From the sequence record MN871446.1: a stretch of DNA of 64,000 nt; one strand, 5' to 3'. The stretch is from Klebsiella phage KpLz-2_45. The notes beneath the pieces were generated by a model. That model searched no databases. It saw only the letters and a list, made by a program, of their open reading frames with translations, and was not told where the DNA came from. A program made the translations under genes and the position numbers. Positions 13,341-42,943 of the stretch are shown one piece after another (positions within the stretch are counted from its first letter, which is position 1; every line of letters begins with the position of its first letter).

Positions 13341-13367
13341 TCACTCAAGTGATATAGGCTTTAAAAC
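13341..13367 (-). promoter_or_regulatory. conserved promoter-like motif copy 2 (TTCACTCAAGTGATATAGGCTTTAAAAC)
   Basis: Immediately after terminator 13376-13409 and 60 nt upstream of gene 12784-13284. Confidence 0.55.
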
Positions 13368-14780: not shown

Positions 14781-14807
14781 CAATAACGTGATATAGATCT
14801 TAAAACT
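14781..14807 (-). promoter_or_regulatory. conserved promoter-like motif copy 3
   Basis: Between hairpin 14822-14845 and the AAA ATPase gene start. Confidence 0.55.
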
Positions 14808-21175: not shown

Positions 21176-21649
21176 TTAACCCTCGAACCGATAAACAATG
21201 ATTTCAAGATTGGTATCCTTAAAAGCCCGCTCAATGTTTTGGCGGACCATTTCCCAATCACCACCGGCCAGCCCGCATCCGATTAAAGGAAAACCAACTT
21301 TTAACGGCTTCTCTTCCTTTTTGAGAATCGATGCCATTATCTTCATTGCCAGATACTGTGCGCTATAATGCGTTTTATATCCCGGATCTGAATGGTCGTG
21401 GTGAAATTGGCCACAAAGATTGAAACCCCACTGCTCATCCTTTTTGGCGGCCGTTAATTTCCCCAATCTGTTTTTGACAGGGCGTTTGTCAGCAAAGTAA
21501 GGCTCAGCTATCCAGGGAAAAGCTTCGAAGATCTTAACAGCGATGCCACTCTTTGCGATCCCAAAGCAGTTTACTTGGTGGGCAATGACGTCGACTTCCT
21601 TATTAAAGAAAGCCTCAATCAAATCCCCTTTAATTTCGGTATAGGTCAT
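21176..21649 (-). CDS. macro-domain protein of the TARG1/OARD1/DarG-macro type (ADP-ribose or O-acetyl-ADP-ribose hydrolase)
   Basis: 157 aa. KGDLIEAF...DVIAHQVNCFGIAKSGIAVKI and KVGFPLIGCGLAGGDWEMV...LEIIVY match the TARG1-family motifs (KGDLF, PRIGCGLDRL..W). Confidence 0.75.
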   Translation of the reverse strand: MTYTEIKGDLIEAFFNKEVDVIAHQVNCFGIAKSGIAVKIFEAFPWIAEPYFADKRPVKNRLGKLTAAKKDEQWGFNLCGQFHHDHSDPGYKTHYSAQYLAMKIMASILKKEEKPLKVGFPLIGCGLAGGDWEMVRQNIERAFKDTNLEIIVYRFEG

Positions 21650-23682: not shown

Positions 23683-23997
23683 TTATTTTTGCCTGATACG
23701 GAGTTCGAGTTTAATCGATAAATCGTCACCGTCAGTTTCATCAAATGAGAGACTCCGCCAGATTCCTATTTCTCCGCCGTACGCGTAGAAATAAATCTCC
23801 CTTTCGAAAATAACGAAGAGCTTCTCAATAATCGCTGTTTCTTCATTCGTAAAAGCAAATGACGGAGAAAGCGATTCCGAACGATGTTTAGGTAGTCCCT
23901 GTAACAATTCTACGGAATCATTAAACTCCGTCGAAGTAACACCGGAGTGACGAGCGTGACCAACTACCAGACACGTTTCTAAAACGCACGTTGTCAT
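23683..23997 (-). CDS. hypothetical protein
   Basis: 104 aa; ATGA-coupled to the ThyA-family gene. Confidence 0.45.
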   Translation of the reverse strand: MTTCVLETCLVVGHARHSGVTSTEFNDSVELLQGLPKHRSESLSPSFAFTNEETAIIEKLFVIFEREIYFYAYGGEIGIWRSLSFDETDGDDLSIKLELRIRQK

Positions 23998-25373
23998 ACC
24001 GACACCTGTAATTTAATGGCTGGGTGATGCTTGTACTCAGTGAAGACGAAATCTTCATAGGTGAGTTCAAACAACCCTTTCTTCGGCATCTCTGAGTTAT
24101 AGTAGTGCTCAGAGCGAACGTAACACTCAACCGGTTTGTAAGGCTCGCGAGTTAACTGTAACTTCGCTTCCTCTAACTGATTATTGTAGATATGGACGTT
24201 AGTCAGATTACCAACCAGCTTATTGGGCGCCATACCGAGCTCATGAGCAAATGACAGCAACATGAAGGCGTAGAAAGCCTGGTTAAAGGGCTCACCGGTC
24301 ATTGTGTCACAGCTCCGCATACTGTATTTCAAACTCAGCCACTGCGTCGGTACGTGGTTCTCCGTCAACCATTCCGCTTTACGCTCAGGGGACATTTTCG
24401 GCTGGTCACAATGTTCTTCGCTGTAGCAGTCCGACATATGGTCTTCCCAAAGATCCTGGAAGTACGGGTTAGCATTGTTCCTGCACCATTTTAACCGCTC
24501 GCTCAATGTCATCTCTTCTACGTAGAACTCTACCAGGAAATGACACGGGGTAAGGCATGGTTTACCCTCCACAATATTTTCCTGCGGCGTAACCTTAACG
24601 GTCTTAGTGCGTGGTACACCATGACTTGCTAAGAACTCTTCGCAGTTATCGGTCTTGCCATGATATTCCAGGCGCGGCCAGAAAATAGCATAAAGGTCCG
24701 GACTGTGAGTTTTTAAATGTTCCCACATCTCGTCACTACTGAGAGTAACTTCTTTCGTTTCTTCCGGCATCCAAAGCGGGTTCCACGCCGAGATCAGGAT
24801 ACGACGCGATTCCGGATTGTTCCGTAGGAGATCGAGCGCATACGCGATTTGGTCAACGCCCTTCTTCTCTAATGGATTCTCGGAGAAGTTTCGCCATGCT
24901 GACCCGTAAGGGGCATTAAGGTCACCCGCTTTGTTCACGGTGACCTGGCGAGTACGCGGTACACCTTTTTCATCTAGCCAACGATGGCCGTCTTCAACAG
25001 GCTGAATGGAGATCCCTTTGCTGTAAAACTCGATGTGAGCTTCTTTGTTGTTCTCTTCAAGCCACTTCAGGCGCTCGTAGTTTTCCAGAGGAACTTCTTT
25101 CACCACGTCAGCTTCTAAACGCCACGGGTCCCAGAACTTGACATTATTCTCCACCATGGTATCGAGGTGGAGTTCCCCGTTTAACATTGCCTTGTACTCA
25201 AACCACGCAGATTTACGCGGAACGAACTTCGTGGTGAGCAGAGGGAATTCCCCGGTCGAAAGGTCGTACTTCAGTTTCGCATCAAAAATAGAAATCGTCC
25301 CCGTTCCCGTCCTGTCTCCTCGCTGACGACCGGTTTCGATAATTTCACGTAGTAGATCGAGATACTGTTTCAC
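23994..25373 (-). CDS. thymidylate-synthase-family enzyme (dUMP-specific; thymidylate synthase or dUMP hydroxymethylase) with three inserted ~55-aa repeat modules; GTG start
   Basis: MKQYLDLLREII..DRTGTGT..F..PLLTTK, RRILISAWNP, TPCHFLVEFYV (catalytic Cys), SMRSCDTMTGEPFNQAFYAF (Asn specifying uracil). 459 aa versus ~264 for E. coli ThyA. Confidence 0.85.
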   Translation of the reverse strand: MKQYLDLLREIIETGRQRGDRTGTGTISIFDAKLKYDLSTGEFPLLTTKFVPRKSAWFEYKAMLNGELHLDTMVENNVKFWDPWRLEADVVKEVPLENYERLKWLEENNKEAHIEFYSKGISIQPVEDGHRWLDEKGVPRTRQVTVNKAGDLNAPYGSAWRNFSENPLEKKGVDQIAYALDLLRNNPESRRILISAWNPLWMPEETKEVTLSSDEMWEHLKTHSPDLYAIFWPRLEYHGKTDNCEEFLASHGVPRTKTVKVTPQENIVEGKPCLTPCHFLVEFYVEEMTLSERLKWCRNNANPYFQDLWEDHMSDCYSEEHCDQPKMSPERKAEWLTENHVPTQWLSLKYSMRSCDTMTGEPFNQAFYAFMLLSFAHELGMAPNKLVGNLTNVHIYNNQLEEAKLQLTREPYKPVECYVRSEHYYNSEMPKKGLFELTYEDFVFTEYKHHPAIKLQVSV

Positions 25374-25765
25374 TATTCTTTTTCCTCTTTAGCGATTTTA
25401 TAGTGTTTAGGGGCTTTATTCACACTTACGAATTCCCCGGTAAACCAACCTTCCGATTGCTCAATGATACGGTAATAGAACATCCGGTTATACCTCGTTC
25501 CGCTCCGGGAAGTAATCAGCCGGGTTAATTCGGCCGGAAGCGAAAACGCACCAGAGAGCACTTTATACAGGTAATCTTTCCCTACCCGAAAACGAAACTC
25601 TAACGTGATAGGGTCGTATTCGAATTCGAGCGACGAATAAGGTTCAGGCTGTAAGTCCCTGAACCCTGCGGAGAGGTAACAACTCCCGCCTGGTGCAATA
25701 CGGAGATAGACCGGTTTTAGGTTAGGAAGTTTATTGGTCTTCGGAACAAACTTTTCAAAGGCCAT
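25373..25765 (-). CDS. hypothetical protein, paralog family A (shares EFEYD..T..FRF.VG and GWxxGEF with 26953-27366)
   Basis: ATG with AGAGAG SD; track starts at a TTG at 25792. Its N-terminus MAFEKFVP parallels MPFIKVP of the paralog. Confidence 0.5.
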   Translation of the reverse strand: MAFEKFVPKTNKLPNLKPVYLRIAPGGSCYLSAGFRDLQPEPYSSLEFEYDPITLEFRFRVGKDYLYKVLSGAFSLPAELTRLITSRSGTRYNRMFYYRIIEQSEGWFTGEFVSVNKAPKHYKIAKEEKE

Positions 25766-25807
25766 TTTGTTCTCTCTTATTAATTTAATCAAATAAAATC
25801 AAGACGG

Positions 25808-25843: not shown

Positions 25844-26440
25844 TTATCTACCTGTACGCTTATTTGTCCAAGAAGACAATCGTTTCAAATTATCTCGATG
25901 AACCAATAAATCACCCCAATTTTTCTCGGGAGAGTTATCACCAGATGTAGCTCTCTGGTAGGCATACATAATTTGCTCGTAAGAAACCTCTACAGGCATC
26001 CCGCCTGTCGCTGTGCAGAATAACGGCATAACGACGTTTTTTATCGCCCGATCTGGAGAAATACGGTTGAAATATTTTATCTGGCAAAAAGCAGCCAGCG
26101 CCGCGTGATATGCAATATCTTTACTTTTTGTCGGGCTAGGGAATCGCATCGTCGGTGCATAGCACAATTGAACTGCTTCACTCAGTGAAACGGTGATAGC
26201 CTGCCCCACTGGCATTTCTTTACCCCAGAATTGTTTGATGACCGTTTGGACAGTTTCTTGGGAGCGAGGAAACTTGTCCCTTACTACTTTGTCAAAACCA
26301 CCGTCCATAATACCAAACGAGTTACCAGGTGTAATAATGCAGTCGTAATCCTTACCCGGGACCATCGTTCTGAAATCCCGTTTTTCAAAATTTGGCCAGC
26401 TATCAAAGCCAGATAAATCAATTATCTTTAGATTAAACAT
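25844..26440 (-). CDS. macro-domain protein (second, divergent)
   Basis: 198 aa; YDCIITPGNSFGIMDGGFDKVV resembles the N-A-A-N..GGGV loop. AITVSL...CYAPTM and NVVMPLFCTATGGMP resemble the macro P-loop-like GxG motif. Confidence 0.65.
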   Translation of the reverse strand: MFNLKIIDLSGFDSWPNFEKRDFRTMVPGKDYDCIITPGNSFGIMDGGFDKVVRDKFPRSQETVQTVIKQFWGKEMPVGQAITVSLSEAVQLCYAPTMRFPSPTKSKDIAYHAALAAFCQIKYFNRISPDRAIKNVVMPLFCTATGGMPVEVSYEQIMYAYQRATSGDNSPEKNWGDLLVHRDNLKRLSSWTNKRTGR

Positions 26441-26952: not shown

Positions 26953-27366
26953 CTATTTAACCCAAGTGTCAACCGGGCGAATAAAACTTTTGAATTCGCC
27001 GTACCACCACCCGTCTTCTTTTAACACGGGTTTAAAGTACGCCGATCGTCTGGCAAAACCTTTTGTGTGTTGGCCGTCTGCCAAGAGTTGTTTATTCCAG
27101 ATTGTACGTAATACTGTTGTCGGGAGAAGAAACGTACCACTCCCTGACAGCGGACGATCGAAATAAGGGCCAACCTGAAAACGAAAATGACCTGTTTCAG
27201 TATCGTATTCAAAATCAATCGTATCGTCGCCAATGTCAAATTGATTCAAAAATGTTTTCGATAAAGAACAATCGGAATCCCGAGAGAGGCGTACGTACTC
27301 TACGTGATAACTGCGTTCCCGGTGAATATCTTTCACTTGTGAATAAGGGACTTTGATAAAGGGCAT
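26953..27366 (-). CDS. hypothetical protein, paralog family A
   Basis: 137 aa; AAGGAG SD; paralogous to 25373-25765. Confidence 0.5.
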   Translation of the reverse strand: MPFIKVPYSQVKDIHRERSYHVEYVRLSRDSDCSLSKTFLNQFDIGDDTIDFEYDTETGHFRFQVGPYFDRPLSGSGTFLLPTTVLRTIWNKQLLADGQHTKGFARRSAYFKPVLKEDGWWYGEFKSFIRPVDTWVK

Positions 27367-27418: not shown

Positions 27419-27781
27419 TTAACAAATGACCGCGTCTACAAACAGCGCCGACATCGAACGGACTGGCGTAAGCGACTCTTTTAACGTAGGGAAGAATTTA
27501 CCTTCCGAACTGATGAATAAACACGCGCAGTCTACTTGACCCCGATTTATCCGCTGCGCCATTGCTAAGGTATTCGGTAACGGAATGACCTTGATCGAAG
27601 CGATCAATTTCGGTCCGAGGTAATCAGTAATGACCTCTTTGAATTTCGCGCGAGTCCGCGGGTCACCGTATACCTTTACGGTCTTACCCTTCATCAGGTT
27701 ATTCGCAATGAAAGCGGAATAATGCAACATCGCAGATTCGTTGAAGGTGCCTAACACTTTAATGGACTGGATTCGTTTCAT
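27419..27781 (-). CDS. hypothetical protein (ATGA-coupled start; track alternative at 27796)
   Basis: ATG overlapping the upstream TGA. Confidence 0.45.
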   Translation of the reverse strand: MKRIQSIKVLGTFNESAMLHYSAFIANNLMKGKTVKVYGDPRTRAKFKEVITDYLGPKLIASIKVIPLPNTLAMAQRINRGQVDCACLFISSEGKFFPTLKESLTPVRSMSALFVDAVIC

Positions 27782-28323
27782 TTTGTAAAAACCCAATAAA
27801 CGTCGTAAAATGGAATAGCATGGATTCCCGAGGGGAGGTTGTCGATCTCTTCGATATCTTTCATATCGAGTAAATTGACAACTAACCCGGTGGATAATAA
27901 TCGCTTGAGGCTATACGCCACCGCACCAAGCGGAATTTCGAAGGTAATCGCCTTTTGACATTTGAAATGACTGACCAGTTTGCGCGGATTATCCGCTAAC
28001 CGTTCGAGATAATCTTTATACGTTTCCCCGTCGTGACCACGCAGCGGCCACTGCCAGATAATTCCGTCTGCGGCTACTATCGCCTCCCCTCGAAAACGAT
28101 AAGGATTTTGATATTGCTCCCATTTGAGATACCCCGGTTGGTACATAGAGCCGTGATCAAGGATCTCCAATTCTTTCCCTGCTATGGCTTCACGAATCAT
28201 TTCTGCAAGGGCCGGTATGAGAACAGTTTCCCCTGCGGCATTTTTACCAAGAGCGACCTTCTCTCCTTCCACTAAACCGTAGACGTCAGCCGCGTAAGCG
28301 CCCCGTTCAAACTTAAATTTCAT
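27778..28323 (-). CDS. hypothetical protein, translationally coupled downstream of Tpt1
   Basis: 181 aa; ATGA overlap with Tpt1 stop; Gly-rich KVALGKNAAGETV segment. Confidence 0.5.
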   Translation of the reverse strand: MKFKFERGAYAADVYGLVEGEKVALGKNAAGETVLIPALAEMIREAIAGKELEILDHGSMYQPGYLKWEQYQNPYRFRGEAIVAADGIIWQWPLRGHDGETYKDYLERLADNPRKLVSHFKCQKAITFEIPLGAVAYSLKRLLSTGLVVNLLDMKDIEEIDNLPSGIHAIPFYDVYWVFTK

Positions 28324-28883
28324 TCTTTTTTCTCCTCTACTTTAAAACACCCAACTGGAACATGTTCGACCAGCCAAACCCCGTTCAACGCTTTGTAGAA
28401 CACGTAGCCGCGTTCCAATAGTTTCTGGGTATCAATACTCAAGACTACGAGCGACCCTTTCTTAGCGTACCGTAATCCCACTAACCGCGCGGTCTCGATG
28501 TGATCGGTTAAATGGACAAACTGGCGGGATTGCGGATTGAGTCCATTCTCAAAAATACTCTCTAAATTCCCCGATGCAGTGCCGTGGTAAAGTACCTCAG
28601 GCGGTACCTCTTCATTGAAGGCCATTTCATTTACCGGGAATGAATGCCCCTGTACAGCACGGATAGAAGAAAGATCATCGGATAACCCAAATCGTTTCTT
28701 ATCGTCCGTCTCTACAACGTGCATAATTTCCTGTAACGTAACTACCTTATTCTGTTCAGAGAATGCTGCAATCAGGTCGTCGAGTCTGACATAGCCAAGT
28801 TCATCAGGCGTTAATTTCAAAGCCTGAGGCCGATGGCGTAAAATGAAACACAGTGTTTTTGATAACTTAATTGGATCGTTCAA
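28320..28883 (-). CDS. kptA: RNA 2'-phosphotransferase Tpt1/KptA family (NAD+-dependent)
   Basis: 187 aa. KLSKTLCFILRHRPQALKL..D..GYV.LDDLI, DKKRF, IRAVQGHS, LYHGTASGNLESI, VHLT, VGLRYAKKGSLVVLSID, NGVWL align with E. coli KptA along the full length. TTG start with an AAGGG SD. Confidence 0.85.
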   Translation of the reverse strand: MNDPIKLSKTLCFILRHRPQALKLTPDELGYVRLDDLIAAFSEQNKVVTLQEIMHVVETDDKKRFGLSDDLSSIRAVQGHSFPVNEMAFNEEVPPEVLYHGTASGNLESIFENGLNPQSRQFVHLTDHIETARLVGLRYAKKGSLVVLSIDTQKLLERGYVFYKALNGVWLVEHVPVGCFKVEEKKE

Positions 28884-28887
28884 ATTA

Positions 28888-29415
28888 TTACCCTTGGAGC
28901 GTATAACCTGCGCCGTAAACTTCGATCAATTGATCCCAAATAGGATCTACCCAAACGGGTACTTTGAACCCAAGATGTTCTTCTTCACGGTATAACCAGC
29001 CTTTCTTCTCGGTGAAAGAGAAGAAGTTATCTCTGCTCTTTTTAAGGTTATCGTAATAGGCAAACATTTTGTGGTCGGTCGCTTCTGCTTTATATTTCGC
29101 ATAAAGCCATTTACGGTATTGCGCTTCGATTTCAGTATATTCCACTGGCTCATACCCAGAAAGAATCGTCACACCACCCGTTGAATTCTCCGGGTAGCGC
29201 TGGAGTCCATCCCAAATAGCGGGTAGGGGGATAAAATCCCCTAATTCCCAAATATCGAACATGGGTGTCAGAACAGAGCGGGGTTCGTCCGGGCAAACAC
29301 TGAACGTTGCATTGCGGAACGCAGCTTCTTTATTTTCAGCGGCGATTAATAACACTGTCGCTTCTTTAGATTCAGGGAGATCGTAAAACTTCTCACTCGC
29401 CAGAAACAGTTTCAT
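28888..29415 (-). CDS. hypothetical protein between Tpt1 and HD hydrolase
   Basis: 175 aa; AGGGGAA SD. Confidence 0.5.
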   Translation of the reverse strand: MKLFLASEKFYDLPESKEATVLLIAAENKEAAFRNATFSVCPDEPRSVLTPMFDIWELGDFIPLPAIWDGLQRYPENSTGGVTILSGYEPVEYTEIEAQYRKWLYAKYKAEATDHKMFAYYDNLKKSRDNFFSFTEKKGWLYREEEHLGFKVPVWVDPIWDQLIEVYGAGYTLQG

Positions 29416-30121
29416 TGTTATTCCCCTGTGCAGTTAGGCCAAAATAATGACAACTACCTTGCGCAACAACTCGGTATTTTTTCGCGTGTGCCGCGCCTAA
29501 CGCAGTGTAAAACTTGAGATTGCTGATGTAGTCAATGTTTCTTTTCGTAAACTCTTCTCGTGACTGACCGAAGCGAATACCGATCTCTTGGTAAAGTCCG
29601 TTGAAGATGTCTTCATCGAGATAAGACATCGCGTAGAGTTGATCGGCGTCCCGGATAATGCCGAATAAATAACGCATACCGGTACCGCCGGGATACTGCG
29701 GAAAAGGGTCGTCGAAGTTATAATGCGTGAATCCGACTAATAAAGTGATCATCGCTTTGTTAGCCGTAGGAAACTCACGCCAGAAACCTAATTGCTCAAG
29801 TTGCTGTAAAGTGTACTCAATATTCTTCCAGTCATCTTTCTCTCCTAAGTGACAGAAATCGTGAACTAGTCCTGCGATGACGGCTGATTCAAAATCCTTC
29901 TCAGAGAGCCCGTAATTTGATGGCTCAAGATTGGAAAGAAGATAACCTGTCAGTACACCTACGCCAATTAAATGGCGTGTGGAGTGGTACGGTCGCCCTG
30001 CGTTGTGTTCTTCTACCCAGCGAATGATCCCATTGTAGTCATTGAAGAAACAACGTCCCCAGATCGGGTTCATTTCCTTCAGTCCGTAATTATCCCAGAA
30101 GACTGAGAACTCACTGTGCAT
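29393..30121 (-). CDS. HD-domain metal-dependent phosphohydrolase
   Basis: 242 aa; H..H (YHSTRHLIGV), HD (AGLVHDFCH) and a downstream D (IIRDADQLY) are the characteristic HD signature. Confidence 0.7.
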   Translation of the reverse strand: MHSEFSVFWDNYGLKEMNPIWGRCFFNDYNGIIRWVEEHNAGRPYHSTRHLIGVGVLTGYLLSNLEPSNYGLSEKDFESAVIAGLVHDFCHLGEKDDWKNIEYTLQQLEQLGFWREFPTANKAMITLLVGFTHYNFDDPFPQYPGGTGMRYLFGIIRDADQLYAMSYLDEDIFNGLYQEIGIRFGQSREEFTKRNIDYISNLKFYTALGAAHAKKYRVVAQGSCHYFGLTAQGNNNETVSGE

Positions 30122-30827
30122 TTTTAACCTCGTTATACGCGTTGTTTACTGCCACCAACGTTTTGCTCACCGCCTCATTGTCTGGGAGAGTAAGCGGCCA
30201 GCTGGGGTGCATGTTGATGTAATATTCGTTCTCGCCAGGAGCGAAGACGATAAAGAATGTATGGTCAGCGTTCACTTCCGCAGAGAGCCGATTAATGGCG
30301 ATATTGTAATAGACCCGACACCCTGCTTTCTCTCCGACTGCCTTTAGTTTGTCTGGGTTGATTAATGGGTTGTTTAAGAAGGACTCAACTGTCCCTTTAA
30401 ACGGGAGAATATTCATTTCGCCGTTAGAGGAATCCGTCGGGCCGCGATACAGTTTAACGGCATCCTGACAATACTCTTCTACCCGATCGCAATACGTCGC
30501 AATCAACGCTTCAGGTACTGCCGAGAGTTTGTCGGTGAGTTTATCAATCAGTACCGCGGTATCGGCTTCATCTGACCGGACCATGATCATCGGAAACCAT
30601 TTATTCAGCAGACAGAAGAAACGGGGGTCTACGCCGTGATTAACGAGGTAAGAAACGAATTCACTGGTAGCGATCCCTGCCACCCAGCCGTAGGGCTTAA
30701 AGGTACCCGGAGGAGCCCAATCTTCATCAGACCAAAATTTACGGAGATAAAATTCGTCCCGTTTAAGACGTTGGATGAAGAAAGTGAACTCTGGTTTATG
30801 ATTCAGAAAACGTTCGATGAAATCCAT
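30111..30827 (-). CDS. hypothetical protein
   Basis: 238 aa. Confidence 0.5.
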   Translation of the reverse strand: MDFIERFLNHKPEFTFFIQRLKRDEFYLRKFWSDEDWAPPGTFKPYGWVAGIATSEFVSYLVNHGVDPRFFCLLNKWFPMIMVRSDEADTAVLIDKLTDKLSAVPEALIATYCDRVEEYCQDAVKLYRGPTDSSNGEMNILPFKGTVESFLNNPLINPDKLKAVGEKAGCRVYYNIAINRLSAEVNADHTFFIVFAPGENEYYINMHPSWPLTLPDNEAVSKTLVAVNNAYNEVKNAQ

Positions 30828-31276
30828 TATTTATCCTCGAGGTGAAAACGAATTTTAAAGACGGGATAATCAGTGATCTCGTCTTCATTGAGTAAAAGGA
30901 TGCGAATAGCTTTGATATTAAAGCCGAAAATCAATTTGAAATCTATAGCCTGCTCTTCACAATACGTAGTGCGACAGACATTATTCGAAATGAGATCGTT
31001 ATCGGGATTAACAAACAAACAATTCTCCGGCAATTGACAGTCTACCCCACGATAGCAAATCGATAGAATCTCTAGACGGGTTATTTTTCTGTCGACAGGA
31101 AGTTGGTCTCTAAGCTTGTAAATCTTGTCTTTATCAACGATGAGATCAGCGTAGTCGAGTTTAGGTCCGAATAGGTTAAGGGTTATTTCTTCATTCAACA
31201 GTCTATTGATCTCGAAAACTTTTACTTTATCAGAAATATCCCTTTTCAAGATTTCTTTAATTTTTTCGATGGACAT
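30827..31276 (-). CDS. hypothetical protein
   Basis: 149 aa; AAAGGAG SD; first gene after promoter motif #5. Confidence 0.5.
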   Translation of the reverse strand: MSIEKIKEILKRDISDKVKVFEINRLLNEEITLNLFGPKLDYADLIVDKDKIYKLRDQLPVDRKITRLEILSICYRGVDCQLPENCLFVNPDNDLISNNVCRTTYCEEQAIDFKLIFGFNIKAIRILLLNEDEITDYPVFKIRFHLEDK

Positions 31277-31300
31277 TTATTTCTCCTTTTATTTTTCCTC

Positions 31301-31328
31301 TACATCTAAGTGATATAGACTTGAAAAC
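31301..31328 (-). promoter_or_regulatory. conserved promoter-like motif copy 5
   Basis: After terminator 31358-31385, upstream of gene 30827-31276. Confidence 0.55.
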
Positions 31329-31357: not shown

Positions 31358-31385
31358 CTTCCTCTCTCCCGAAGGAGAGAGGAAG
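31358..31385 (-). terminator. terminator-like hairpin
   Basis: CTTCCTCTCTCC-CGAA-GGAGAGAGGAAG, T-rich tract downstream. Confidence 0.55.
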
Positions 31386-31862: not shown

Positions 31863-31887
31863 CAATCAAGTGATATAGATGTTAAAT
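31863..31887 (-). promoter_or_regulatory. conserved promoter-like motif copy 6
   Basis: Overlaps the stop of 31882-32433; upstream of membrane protein gene 31393-31797. Confidence 0.5.
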
Positions 31888-37227: not shown

Positions 37228-37917
37228 TTATTTGTTGGTTTTGGTGATATACCACTTCCAAAGGCCGTAGAAAGCATTCATCAAGAATACTGCCCACTGT
37301 GCCACCTGCGCCCATGAACCCGGTTGATTAAGCGCCGGGATCACCCACAGATAAATCGTGACGCAGTTGATAATGATCCAGAGAATCCATTGTTCTGGCT
37401 GCTGCTTGATCATCATCCACATGGCGATGAGCGATGCGACTAAGCAGAACGCGTCTAATGCAGGAAACGGATCCTGCGTAGTTTTCAGGTATTCGGTCAG
37501 GCCATACCAGAAGATAACCCCAACAACCAGATAAGTTATCACGTCACGTAAAGTGATCGTTTTAACCGCTACGTCAGCTTTGGCTGGAGTTTTGCCCAGG
37601 TCTTTCGTCCAGTAATAAATACCGATAAACTGCATGGGAAGGTAAATAGCGTTCAACGCCGCATTGGCATAAAGGCCGGTATTGTACGAAACAATACCGT
37701 AGGTAATTACGCCAATCGTCCCCCAGTAATAATTAGAGACGCGACCCTTCGCCACCAGAATCACGCAGACGACGTTAGTCAGCGCTGCCGTGAATTCTAA
37801 CGGACTGGCTTGCCAGCTCCCTAATCCGACGACGATTAACGCTACGATCAGCCAAAAGTATTCGACTTTCTTCCAGTGCGCAAAGTCAGTGAAAGTTTTC
37901 ATTACCAATGAGTTCAT
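37228..37917 (-). CDS. pnuC: nicotinamide riboside transporter PnuC
   Basis: 229 aa. Collinear with E. coli PnuC: multi-TM profile, WxxVE, NVVCVILVAKG, IYYW, ILWIIIN-type conserved stretches. AAGGA SD. Confidence 0.85.
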   Translation of the reverse strand: MNSLVMKTFTDFAHWKKVEYFWLIVALIVVGLGSWQASPLEFTAALTNVVCVILVAKGRVSNYYWGTIGVITYGIVSYNTGLYANAALNAIYLPMQFIGIYYWTKDLGKTPAKADVAVKTITLRDVITYLVVGVIFWYGLTEYLKTTQDPFPALDAFCLVASLIAMWMMIKQQPEQWILWIIINCVTIYLWVIPALNQPGSWAQVAQWAVFLMNAFYGLWKWYITKTNK

Positions 37918-38061: not shown

Positions 38062-39273
38062 TCATCCACCCCAATCAGCGGGGTTCTGATGAGAACCAGC
38101 CTCGATGCTTTCTACCATACTCCAATCTTTATCAAAGTTACCACCGCTGGCAGCAGGAGGGAACTTATTTGGAATTTCTGGAGCGCTCTGGCCGGCAGTG
38201 CCGTTACCGGATAACAAGTTATCAACCGCTTCACGTGATTGATCTAAACGACCTTTGTAAGAGTCCCCTTTAATGAATACAGTGCGCCCCCATGGTGTTT
38301 GGTTTTTAAATTCCCAAAGCATTTGTTGGAAGAGACTCTCTGTTTTCTCGCGGTCAGGATTCAGCCGCAGACCATCATCGACCCATGGTACTTCCGGCGA
38401 AAGAATCAACACGAGATCGTAATGCTCTTCAGCCGCGATAGCAGAAACAATAGGGTTAGGTTTACCCTCGTACAGCCGATGGTAATATTCCGTAATGAAG
38501 GCGTTCGTATCGATGAAACAGAGTCGATTAGAAGTACGTAATGCTTCCTCCTCCAGCTCTTTGTGACGATACGCAATCAACGGGTAGTCAGAACTACGGA
38601 GAGTCGCTTCCGAACCCGCTAAGACCGTTTCACAGTACGTACGGCCGTACTCTTCAACCCAGCTGGTATTGTAGAGTTTGGCGAGGTTCTTGACGAGGGA
38701 ACTTTTCCCAGAACTCTCAACGCCTAATACGACCACCCGCAAACAATAATCTTTACGGACAATGCTCGGGAGATATTCCCAATGGTCGTAAAGGTTTTCA
38801 CGGATCATCGTGGCGGAGATGGGGACGCGGGTACGGTTACTGTCAACGATAACGTGTTCTACAAAACCGAGGTGCGTTTTGTATTTTTCATCGTAATCCA
38901 GCTCGCTACTGAAAATAGCAATGCTCTGCGCCTGACTGTGATTAGCTGCCAGTCTACCTGCCTCGTTGAAAATCTTAGCGCCGAGCAGAGCAGCGTATTC
39001 TTTCCAGCCGTTCGGGTATTCCGGTACAGAAGCCTCATCAATGAAATCGATCGTGACGTGCTCTGTATCCGCGTAAGTCTGTTGCAGCCAGCGCAGACGA
39101 TTCTTGAAATTGAGTACCTTTTGGTCTCGTGGCGATTGTTTATCCAGCCAACGTTGGTCGTGGGAAAGAATGACGAGGACATGCTTAGACTGCACAGCAG
39201 CCTCTGTGATTAAGTTGATGTGCCCCAACGTAAGGGGTGCGAATTTACCGATTACTACGCCTAAGTCAAACAT
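38062..39273 (-). CDS. nadR: NadR-type bifunctional NMN adenylyltransferase / ribosylnicotinamide kinase. It lacks the N-terminal HTH repressor domain and has a ~50-aa C-terminal Gly/Ser-rich extension.
   Basis: GKFAPLTLGHINLI (NMNAT H-x-G-H), LRWLQQT, YPNGW, ISATMIRENLYDHWEYLP, VVVLGVESSGKSSLVKNLA (RNK P-loop), RLCFIDTNAFIT, YDLVLILSPEVPWVDDGLR match E. coli NadR throughout. Confidence 0.9.
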   Translation of the reverse strand: MFDLGVVIGKFAPLTLGHINLITEAAVQSKHVLVILSHDQRWLDKQSPRDQKVLNFKNRLRWLQQTYADTEHVTIDFIDEASVPEYPNGWKEYAALLGAKIFNEAGRLAANHSQAQSIAIFSSELDYDEKYKTHLGFVEHVIVDSNRTRVPISATMIRENLYDHWEYLPSIVRKDYCLRVVVLGVESSGKSSLVKNLAKLYNTSWVEEYGRTYCETVLAGSEATLRSSDYPLIAYRHKELEEEALRTSNRLCFIDTNAFITEYYHRLYEGKPNPIVSAIAAEEHYDLVLILSPEVPWVDDGLRLNPDREKTESLFQQMLWEFKNQTPWGRTVFIKGDSYKGRLDQSREAVDNLLSGNGTAGQSAPEIPNKFPPAASGGNFDKDWSMVESIEAGSHQNPADWGG

Positions 39274-42915: not shown

Positions 42916-42943
42916 TTCACTCAGGTGATATAGATTTTAAAAG
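42916..42943 (-). promoter_or_regulatory. conserved promoter-like motif copy 7
   Basis: Overlaps the stop of 42917-43411; upstream of 42458-42886. Confidence 0.5.

Follow-up and report, generated by a model that had tools for sequence, protein, structure and literature searches.

Genes for RNA 2'-phosphotransferases of the Tpt1/KptA family have been described in jumbo phages before, the closest accounts being the surveys of Iyer et al. (Viruses 2021, PMC7824862, and 2022, PMC9503650), in which phiKZ-like, nucleus-forming phages are named as "group 1." Here we describe a Tpt1 gene of Klebsiella phage KpLz-2_45, located in a 64,000-nucleotide stretch of sequence record MN871446.1 (hereafter, the window), together with its neighbors, among them the gene of an HD-superfamily protein (here, the HD protein) and several orphan genes, including p175 and p181. 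The window and the surveys share the same enzyme family and the same predicted logic, i.e., clean-up of RNA 2'-phosphates dependent on nicotinamide adenine dinucleotide (NAD+), processing of the by-products by macro domain or 2H enzymes, and NAD+ salvage encoded by the same genomes. They differ in two respects: in the surveys, KptA is linked to RNA ligases of phages and to 2H enzymes, neither of which was found in the lineage studied here, and the HD protein, p175, and p181 belong to no KptA neighborhood described so far. The occurrence of Tpt1 in jumbo phages as a predicted RNA repair enzyme is already published, and GenBank records of the close relatives already label the gene as RNA 2'-phosphotransferase; no experimental work on a Tpt1 from a phage was found in the literature. 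Modestly new are the ligase-less lineage, an HD neighbor that is clearly no conserved partner of Tpt1, and the swapping of HD and p175 as one allele block.

A second point of reference is the RNA repair cluster of Runella slithyformis, which comprises Tpt1, a methyltransferase (MTase)-HIT protein, a ligase, and HD-Pnk (Munir et al. 2018, PMC6097658). As in the window, Tpt1 is clustered there with an HD-domain phosphoesterase, and the Runella enzyme (RslTpt1) is the closest homolog of solved structure. However, the Runella HD domain is fused to a polynucleotide kinase (PNK) and lies beside a ligase, whereas neither kinase nor ligase was recognized in the window, the HD protein of which is assigned to a different, phosphodiesterase (PDE)-like subfamily. 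The Pnkp-Rnl1 repair of anticodon nuclease-cleaved tRNA in phage T4 has the same presumed purpose, namely the restoration of RNA damaged by host defense RNases. No homolog of PseT, Rnl1, or Rnl2 was found in the window or in its relative Centimanus, and the chemistry predicted for the window is NAD+-dependent 2'-phosphate transfer instead of the 3'-phosphatase, kinase, and ligase reactions of T4. Finally, in the by-product route of yeast tRNA splicing, Tpt1 is followed by the 2H cyclic phosphodiesterase Cpd1 and then by the macro domain ADP-ribose-1''-phosphatase (Appr-1''-pase) Poa1p/YMR087W. With this route the window shares Tpt1 and, weakly, a YMR087W-like macro protein (E value, 9e-6), but neither a Trl1-type ligase that makes the 2'-phosphate junction nor a 2H enzyme was found in it.

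Tpt1 and its predicted reaction

The 187-residue product of the open reading frame (ORF) at positions 28320 to 28883 on the minus strand had been read as Tpt1/KptA in the initial annotation, and profile searches bore this out. It matches PF01885 with an E value of 3e-43 and 148.4 bits (cutoff, 26), with residues 5 to 173 aligned to profile positions 4 to 176 of 177, as well as phrog_5470 (2.6e-56), and it aligns end to end with RslTpt1 (7kw8; E value, 1e-40) at 41% identity. The Arg-His-Arg-Arg tetrad is intact: R16, H17, R64, and R120 correspond to R16, H17, R64, and R119 of RslTpt1 and are invariant across six phage Tpt1 sequences. Alanine substitution at any of the four positions abolishes the function of RslTpt1, and R64 is needed selectively for the second step, transesterification, but not for ADP-ribosyl transfer (PMC6097658). 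The strict conservation of this step-2 residue speaks in favor of a phosphotransferase cycle that is still complete. Judged from these features, the protein appears to be a bona fide, catalytically intact Tpt1/KptA, and it is the only enzyme of its gene cassette that could be assigned with confidence. The equivalog cutoff of the NCBIfam PRK00819 models is not reached (best score, 196 versus 239 bits), indicating a divergent representative that does not count as an equivalog of the curated bacterial groups; family membership is unaffected by this. The closest bacterial relatives, spread over many phyla, are only about 48% identical, and a recent host origin was considered and rejected on that figure. 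With the equivalog cutoffs missed and bacterial relatives this distant, the enzyme represents an old and divergent branch of the family in phages.

When the 8-kb stretch around Tpt1 was compared with other phages, identity was highest to "Serratia phage KpXa_1" (98.6%), the host of which is Klebsiella pneumoniae, followed by Klebsiella phages LPKP23 and MJ359 (91 to 92%) and, over part of the length only, by FBKp24 and Centimanus (about 76 to 82%); the genomes of all five are about 300 kb in size. Because Centimanus, an annotated relative, encodes a nuclear shell protein, the tubulin PhuZ, and split multisubunit RNA polymerases, the window stems from an FBKp24-like, nucleus-forming (phiKZ-like) Klebsiella jumbo phage. 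The minus strand carries every gene around Tpt1, and the gene arrangement is kept in 11 sequenced phages and, among metagenomic contigs, in L012 and L020; they all belong to one phage lineage. These relatives also sustain the earlier choice of a TTG start codon with a good Shine-Dalgarno sequence for Tpt1. At the same position, FBKp24 and Centimanus have ATG, MJ359 and L012 have GTG, and L020 has TTG, resulting in M-N-D/N-P in all cases, and 7 nt upstream of the TTG there is a Shine-Dalgarno-like AAGGG.

As noted in the initial annotation, the window has no recognizable RNA ligase or polynucleotide kinase, and the wider search that it had called for gave the same result. With T4 Rnl1, Rnl2, PseT, and DNA ligase as queries, phmmer and blastp searches of every ORF in the window and in the complete relative Centimanus (for which the small remaining part of the genome is covered by the window itself) returned nothing, the best E value being about 0.8; very divergent ligases could escape these searches. 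The PHROG-based annotations of the relatives list neither a ligase nor a 2H enzyme, and the Centimanus protein annotated as a "polynucleotide kinase" matches nothing in Pfam. The earlier suggestion that the uncharacterized neighbors of Tpt1 supply a ligase or kinase activity gained no support either. The proteins p175, p181, p238, p149, and p120 are restricted to this phage lineage, and a hidden Markov model (HMM) of p238 found no match beside the HD homologs of other phages. The orphans of the cassette contain no KxDG nucleotidyltransferase, HIT, or HAD motif, a P-loop is absent from every cassette protein, and profile searches of the PDB with the orphans were empty. For p175, only one of five structure models was good, and its confidence was moderate (predicted local distance difference test [pLDDT], 71.8; predicted template modeling score [pTM], 0.64), and the BFVD model of a p175 ortholog agrees with it independently (template modeling score [TM], 0.84); no known enzyme fold was matched by the p175 model. 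The AlphaFold2 model of p181 (pLDDT, 39.6) offered no usable fold. A ligase or kinase role of the cassette orphans thus lacks support, a statement that for p181, p238, p149, and p120 is judged from sequence and not from fold.

The explanation we favor, at a probability of about 50%, is that Tpt1 would carry out the canonical NAD+-dependent reaction on 2'-phosphorylated RNA during infection, supported by NAD+ salvage and by macro domain clean-up of ADP-ribose. All surveyed Tpt1 enzymes remove internal 2'-phosphates (PMC6182162). In the phage, the substrate would probably be tRNA that host RNases have damaged and that has been opened to a 2'-phosphate. The phage proteins NadR and PnuC (Nampt and Prs in relatives) would maintain the supply of NAD+, the phage macro domains would take care of ADP-ribose by-products or adducts, and no phage ligase would be involved, sealing being either left to the host or not needed. 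The in vivo substrate, the counterdefense role, and the division of labor with the macro, NadR, and PnuC proteins are those we infer for this enzyme.

Several points weigh against this explanation. We know of no source of internal RNA 2'-phosphates, such as a ligase of the fungal or plant type, in the phage or in enterobacteria. As far as can be seen, the pathway would be incomplete, with no ligase, no 2H cyclic phosphodiesterase, and no supported kinase. Since RslTpt1, the closest characterized homolog, is poor on terminal 2'-phosphates (PMC6573784), a version of the explanation in which RNA ends are healed would depend on an activity of only a subset of Tpt1 enzymes. Moreover, the HD and Tpt1 genes lie in one cassette and are probably cotranscribed, which is weak positive evidence for a functional link, perhaps underweighted here, and the clustering of Tpt1 with an HD end-healing enzyme in Runella (PMC6097658) sets a precedent for it.

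The gene cassette and its HD-superfamily protein

Tpt1 is part of a seven-gene cassette, p149-p238-HD-p175-Tpt1-p181-p120, in an accessory region of the phage genome (Klebsiella phage KpLz-2_45; all coordinates in this paragraph refer to the minus strand). Exactly these seven genes are bracketed by terminator-like hairpins at 31385 to 31358 and 27412 to 27390. The first, with a 12-bp stem, separates p134 from p149, which are 116 nt apart, and closes the preceding unit, whereas the second, with a 9-bp stem containing six GC pairs, is followed by a T-run (tail, TTTTTATTTTT) and marks the cassette end. The first gene, p149 (30827 to 31276), encodes a hypervariable orphan without a Pfam match or homologs beyond the clade, which is 35% identical to its MJ359 counterpart while the flanks are about 97% identical. 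It is followed by p238 (30111 to 30827), a clade-restricted orphan without a match in Pfam, PHROG, NCBIfam, or the PDB, by the HD gene (29393 to 30121), predicted to encode a metal-dependent phosphohydrolase with a class-I-PDE-like signature, and by p175 (28888 to 29415; 175 residues), a clade-restricted orphan co-inherited with HD. Downstream of Tpt1 lie p181 (27778 to 28323; 181 residues), likewise a clade-restricted orphan, and the last gene, p120 (27419 to 27781), which belongs to phrog_12807 (no assigned function). For p120, the ORF finder gave a TTG at 27796; the annotations of MJ359, LPKP23, and Centimanus have 120 residues, and this TTG is probably not the true start.

The ORFs of the HD protein, the 175-residue protein, Tpt1, and the 181-residue protein were all found on the minus strand where the initial annotation had placed them. 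It had further described the 181-residue ORF as coupled to Tpt1. While the p181 start and the Tpt1 stop codon do overlap in an ATGA, this is not specific to the pair: the ATG of p120 lies in the same kind of overlap with the p181 stop codon, and all six junctions of the cassette overlap or abut, with overlaps of 1 nt (p149/p238), 11 nt (p238 end/HD start), and 23 nt (HD end/p175), a 4-nt gap (p175/Tpt1), and overlaps of 4 nt each (Tpt1/p181 and p181/p120). In MJ359, 19 of 59 neighboring gene pairs overlap. Gene overlap is the norm in this phage genome and nothing special to Tpt1/p181.

The motif TCTATATCACTT at 31308 to 31319 (minus strand), which comes after the first of the two hairpins, may be the phage promoter of the cassette. 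With at most one mismatch, six copies of it are present on the minus strand (2206 to 2217, 13347 to 13358, 14786 to 14797, 31308 to 31319, 31868 to 31879, and 42923 to 42934), each on the coding strand and either within or bordering an intergenic gap that lies upstream of a gene; terminator-like hairpins precede several of them. With at most two mismatches, the total of 10 copies versus 5.6 expected is not above chance, as 8 of 100 shuffles reach 10. A scan for sigma-70 promoters performed no better than on shuffles (33 found versus 31.6 expected).

As a single sequence, the HD protein stays below the Pfam thresholds, both for HD (PF01966; E value, 0.03; 15 bits versus a cutoff of 22) and for PDEase_I (PF00233; E value, 0.012; 15.8 versus 24.8 bits; profile positions 1 to 54 of 238 only), and it matches phrog_16069 ("phosphohydrolase") with an E value of 2e-21. 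A profile of its close relatives retrieved 539 cluster representatives at an E value of <1e-3 in a full HMMER search, most of them stand-alone proteins of 200 to 260 residues. Among 73 diverse relatives (20 to 59% identity), 30 match Pfam HD (E value, <1e-3) and 22 match PDEase_I. Y45, H46, H50, H87, D88, D97, and D160 are invariant in all 73, and the metal-binding residues H...HD...D are conserved as H46, H87-D88, and D160. Membership in the HD superfamily therefore looks secure at the level of the family, which, with about 540 sequence clusters, is common in nucleus-forming jumbo phages.

The HD protein carries the signature YH..xH ... HDFxHxG ... D..NI ... RDADQLY. Specifically, the PDE elements Y45-H46-S-T-R-H50 and H87-D88-F-C-H91-L-G93 are present, with a shift of three residues for the conserved Asn (N100). 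Against human PDE10A, PDE5, PDE8, and PDE9, the family profile gives matches of 6e-11 to 1e-8, but over the N-terminal approximately 68 residues only (29 to 96), and it also matches the uncharacterized HD hydrolase 2pq7. Because the active-site signature resembles that of class-I cyclic-nucleotide phosphodiesterases, cyclic-phosphodiesterase chemistry is plausible, and the protein is best described as a predicted PDE-like phosphohydrolase with no substrate assigned. With class-I PDEs, YedJ (PRK10119), and 2pq7 it shares the H...HD...D ligands and the YHxxxH and HDxxHxG motifs; it is, however, much shorter than the eukaryotic PDEs, and its nearest bacterial relatives lack a characterized substrate.

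More specific assignments were rejected. A full class-I 3',5'-cyclic nucleotide phosphodiesterase would show a whole-domain match above threshold, which was not found. For a ppGpp hydrolase (RelA/SpoT type) or an HD-GYP protein, no match to HD_4 or HD_5 was obtained, and the relatives carry a separate, genuine HD_4 protein elsewhere. The CCA-enzyme and HD-Pnk types received no support in any test used, hhalign giving a probability of 2.7% for the family profile against a viral PNK-HD fusion (the comparison being with this fusion and not with the Runella sequence). A named NCBIfam family was not assigned, the only matches being weak ones to PRK10119 (YedJ-like) in 5 of the 73 family members. 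Three of the 73 are fused to dihydrofolate reductase, which hints at a role of the family in nucleotide or folate-linked metabolism. Such fusions are C-terminal, and they are found on phage-like contigs of small genes (L019:8001-9224; P0029, P0032, and P0038).

The initial annotation had treated Tpt1, an unknown ORF, and the HD gene as a gene set, and comparison across genomes speaks against such a unit. Eighty viral Tpt1 loci, i.e., the best 80 IMG/VR contigs that carry Tpt1 (grouped at 60% identity into 17 lineages; flanks of ±10 kb), and 80 bacterial Tpt1 loci were searched with HMMs for HD, p175, and p181. The only viral match was FBKp24, which belongs to the same lineage as the window, leaving the 79 other viral loci without any, and there was no match among the bacterial loci. 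Conversely, HD homologs are present without a Tpt1 match in a 735-kb phage, in Klebsiella phages Eowyn and KpHz_2, and in jumbo phages of Aeromonas, Burkholderia, and Pseudomonas. These phages are absent from the 96 records with Tpt1, and the flanks of their HD homologs contain no homologs of Tpt1, p238, p175, or p181. Erwinia phage pEa_SNUABM_1 has both genes, 16 kb apart (Tpt1 at 221,234 and HD at 238,030), and the HD homolog of BcepSauron is located among replication genes. Even within the lineage, p175 is absent from contig L012, where HD directly abuts Tpt1 and an unrelated 120-residue gene is inserted between Tpt1 and p181. The pair p238-HD was also considered, as an 11-nt overlap is likewise present upstream of the Aeromonas homolog AerS_266, but BLAST and HMM searches revealed no p238 there.

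Recombination within the lineage points in the same direction. Compared with LPKP23, nucleotide identity drops from about 97% to 65 to 76% precisely over p175 and HD (about 28,800 to 30,190) and amounts to 37 to 52% over p149 (30,794 to 31,313); compared with KpXa_1, the p175-HD-p238 stretch is 100% identical and Tpt1/p181 only 88 to 93%. HD-p175 exists as two alleles of about 70% nucleotide identity, although the remainder of the genomes is about 97% identical, and the breakpoints fall at the junctions p175/Tpt1 and HD/p238. HD and p175 therefore form an allele block exchanged separately from Tpt1, a pattern typical of arms-race loci or of exchangeable accessory (conflict) loci. HD, p175, and p181 are not conserved partners of Tpt1, and HD most likely has an independent accessory function.

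What that function might be leads to the alternative that survives best, to which we give close to an even chance: the HD protein, with or without p175, would act on nucleotides, for example by degrading cyclic-nucleotide immune or regulatory signals or by sanitizing deoxynucleoside tri- or monophosphate pools, and would merely share a transcription unit with Tpt1 in one lineage. The independent distribution of HD and Tpt1, the divergent HD-p175 alleles in near-identical genomes, the position of the BcepSauron homolog, and the fusions to dihydrofolate reductase all agree with this, as do the PDE-like signature and profile matches, and the overlaps that join the cassette genes are ordinary for this genome. 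The shortness of the PDE similarity, confined to the N-terminal approximately 68 residues, counts against it. The alternative concerns HD only, and it is compatible with, and largely contained in, the explanation preferred for Tpt1.

A functional module is less probable and, in our estimate, unlikely. HD would open cyclic phosphates (RNA 2',3'-cyclic phosphate to 2'-phosphate and/or the 1'',2''-cyclic phosphate of ADP-ribose to ADP-ribose-1''-phosphate), Tpt1 would take the 2'-phosphate, and a macro protein would take the 1''-phosphate, so that one cassette would achieve end healing either independently of a ligase or in dependence on a host ligase. It is consistent with the overlapping ORFs of HD and Tpt1 in one terminator-bounded cassette, with their direct contact in L012, with the cyclic-nucleotide phosphodiesterase signature of the HD active site, and with the YMR087W-like macro gene 2 kb downstream; furthermore, no phage 2H enzyme for the cyclic-phosphate step is recognizable in the annotations. 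Precedents are the HD 2',3'-phosphoesterase-kinase clustered with Tpt1 in Runella (PMC6097658) and a viral PNK-HD fusion about 8 kb from Tpt1 in a gut-phage lineage. On the other hand, the HD protein seems unrelated to the PNK-HD type (2.7% in hhalign), occurs without a Tpt1 match in Eowyn, KpHz_2, and further jumbo phages, among them those of Aeromonas and Burkholderia, or, in pEa_SNUABM_1, 16 kb away from Tpt1, and is represented among the neighbors at the 80 viral and 80 bacterial Tpt1 loci only in FBKp24; HD and p175 are exchanged independently of Tpt1, and the three reductase fusions point to nucleotide metabolism. We have nevertheless kept the module in consideration, because the cotranscription and the Tpt1/HD precedent of Runella remain.

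NAD+ and ADP-ribose genes in the window and near viral Tpt1

The preferred explanation, a canonical Tpt1 reaction with NAD+ salvage and macro clean-up, draws on four further genes of the minus strand. A macro-like protein of 198 residues (25844 to 26440; phrog_2613), encoded 2 kb downstream of Tpt1, is of the YMR087W/Macro_2 type and a candidate ADP-ribose-1''-phosphate phosphatase. Its match to Macro_2 (4e-5; 23.5 bits) is below the cutoff of 27, and its only PDB match is yeast YMR087W (1njr; E value, 9e-6), which was reportedly characterized as an ADP-ribose-1''-phosphatase by Kumaran et al. in 2005. The presence of a yeast Appr-1''-pase-like macro protein near Tpt1, as postulated in the initial annotation, is supported by this sole solved relative. 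No match to the 198-residue protein was found in the 24-kb stretch of Centimanus that was compared. The second macro domain, a TARG1/SCO6735/DarG-like protein of 157 residues (21176 to 21649), is encoded 6.7 kb downstream of Tpt1 and belongs to a family that recurs beside viral Tpt1; it could also be an ADP-ribose eraser of the anti-DarT type. NAD+ supply is represented 9 to 10 kb upstream of Tpt1 by a predicted PnuC nicotinamide riboside/nicotinamide mononucleotide (NMN) transporter (37228 to 37917; PF04973, 3e-43) and a NadR-like NMN adenylyltransferase and ribosylnicotinamide kinase (38062 to 39273; CTP_transf_like and AAA_28), so annotated in the relatives.

The relatives additionally carry Nampt, phosphoribosyl pyrophosphate (PRPP) synthetase, and a third macro domain. 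In Centimanus (OZ240615), Nampt and PRPP synthetase are located at 227059 to 229676, a RelA/SpoT-type HD_4 hydrolase at 200514 to 201212, the third macro domain at 132246 to 132692, and about nine tRNA genes, including a suppressor-like tRNA(tta), at 116612 to 121483. No tRNA genes were found in the window, the relatives having about nine elsewhere.

Among the 80 IMG/VR loci, a TARG1-like macro gene is the most recurrent neighbor of Tpt1, present in 38 loci from 4 of the 17 lineages and usually about 0.4 kb downstream. Thg1-like tRNA repair genes occur near Tpt1 in five viral lineages, and NADAR, YAcAr-SLOG, RlaP, and the PNK-HD fusion are found near it in the dominant gut-phage lineage. Viral Tpt1 thus keeps the NAD+/ADP-ribose and RNA repair company that Iyer et al. 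predicted (PMC7824862 and PMC9503650). The window fits loosely into this company through its macro and NAD+ genes, not through HD.

The same genes bear on a further alternative, in which Tpt1 would act as an ADP-ribosyltransferase that caps 5'-monophosphate ends of RNA or DNA, protecting phage transcripts or disabling host nucleic acids, with the macro proteins as erasers or regulators. A subset of Tpt1 enzymes does cap 5'-phosphate ends (PMC6182162), hydrolases of the macro and TARG1 types strip phosphate-linked ADP-ribose from RNA ends (PMC11833690), the TARG1-like macro is the neighbor that viral Tpt1 most often has, and no ligase that would generate 2'-phosphates was found in the window or Centimanus. 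Yet R64, which is needed for transesterification but not for ADP-ribosyl transfer, is strictly conserved, proficiency in capping cannot be read from sequence, and there is no known target; we regard this alternative as quite improbable. Hardly to be expected, finally, is that Tpt1 would be a stand-alone, NAD+-fueled eraser of RNA 2'-phosphate marks, whether these come from a host kinase or cyclic phosphodiesterase (CPDase)-type defense on tRNA (compare the archaeal writer-eraser pair ArkI/KptA) or are leftovers of host RNase and ThpR, with the rapidly exchanging HD-p175 block on the same transcript as a variable, host-matched cyclic-phosphodiesterase step; if true, it would give bacterial and phage Tpt1 a first physiological substrate.

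Thymidylate synthase is encoded immediately beside Tpt1 in two other viral Tpt1 lineages (L084:10534-11484; lineage 12/13 loci) and 3 kb downstream of it in the window. The homolog in the window (23994 to 25373, minus strand) has 459 residues, with a split Pfam match (1 to 202 and about 344 to 459), and within the extra sequence there are about three segments, similar to each other and approximately 45 residues long, that end in GVPRT(R/K)xV or HVPTQW. The long form is kept in the relatives (459 to 461 residues), and contig L020 has a 407-residue homolog at that position. The paralogs p139 and p137 (25373 to 25792 and 26953 to 27366, minus strand), which are about 30% identical, flank the pair formed by the 198-residue macro protein and p159; they weakly match an ORF near the HD homolog of Erwinia phage pEa_SNUABM_54.

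Meaning for the Tpt1 family

Neither the Tpt1 nor the HD result alters current concepts unless the substrate proves surprising. The role of Tpt1 in organisms that lack a fungal-type tRNA ligase has been explicitly posed as an open question (PMC6573784 and PMC6182162). A lytic phage with a predicted intact Tpt1, no ligase found, its own NAD+ supply, and several macro domains would offer a tractable genetic system in which the natural substrate of Tpt1 may be sought.

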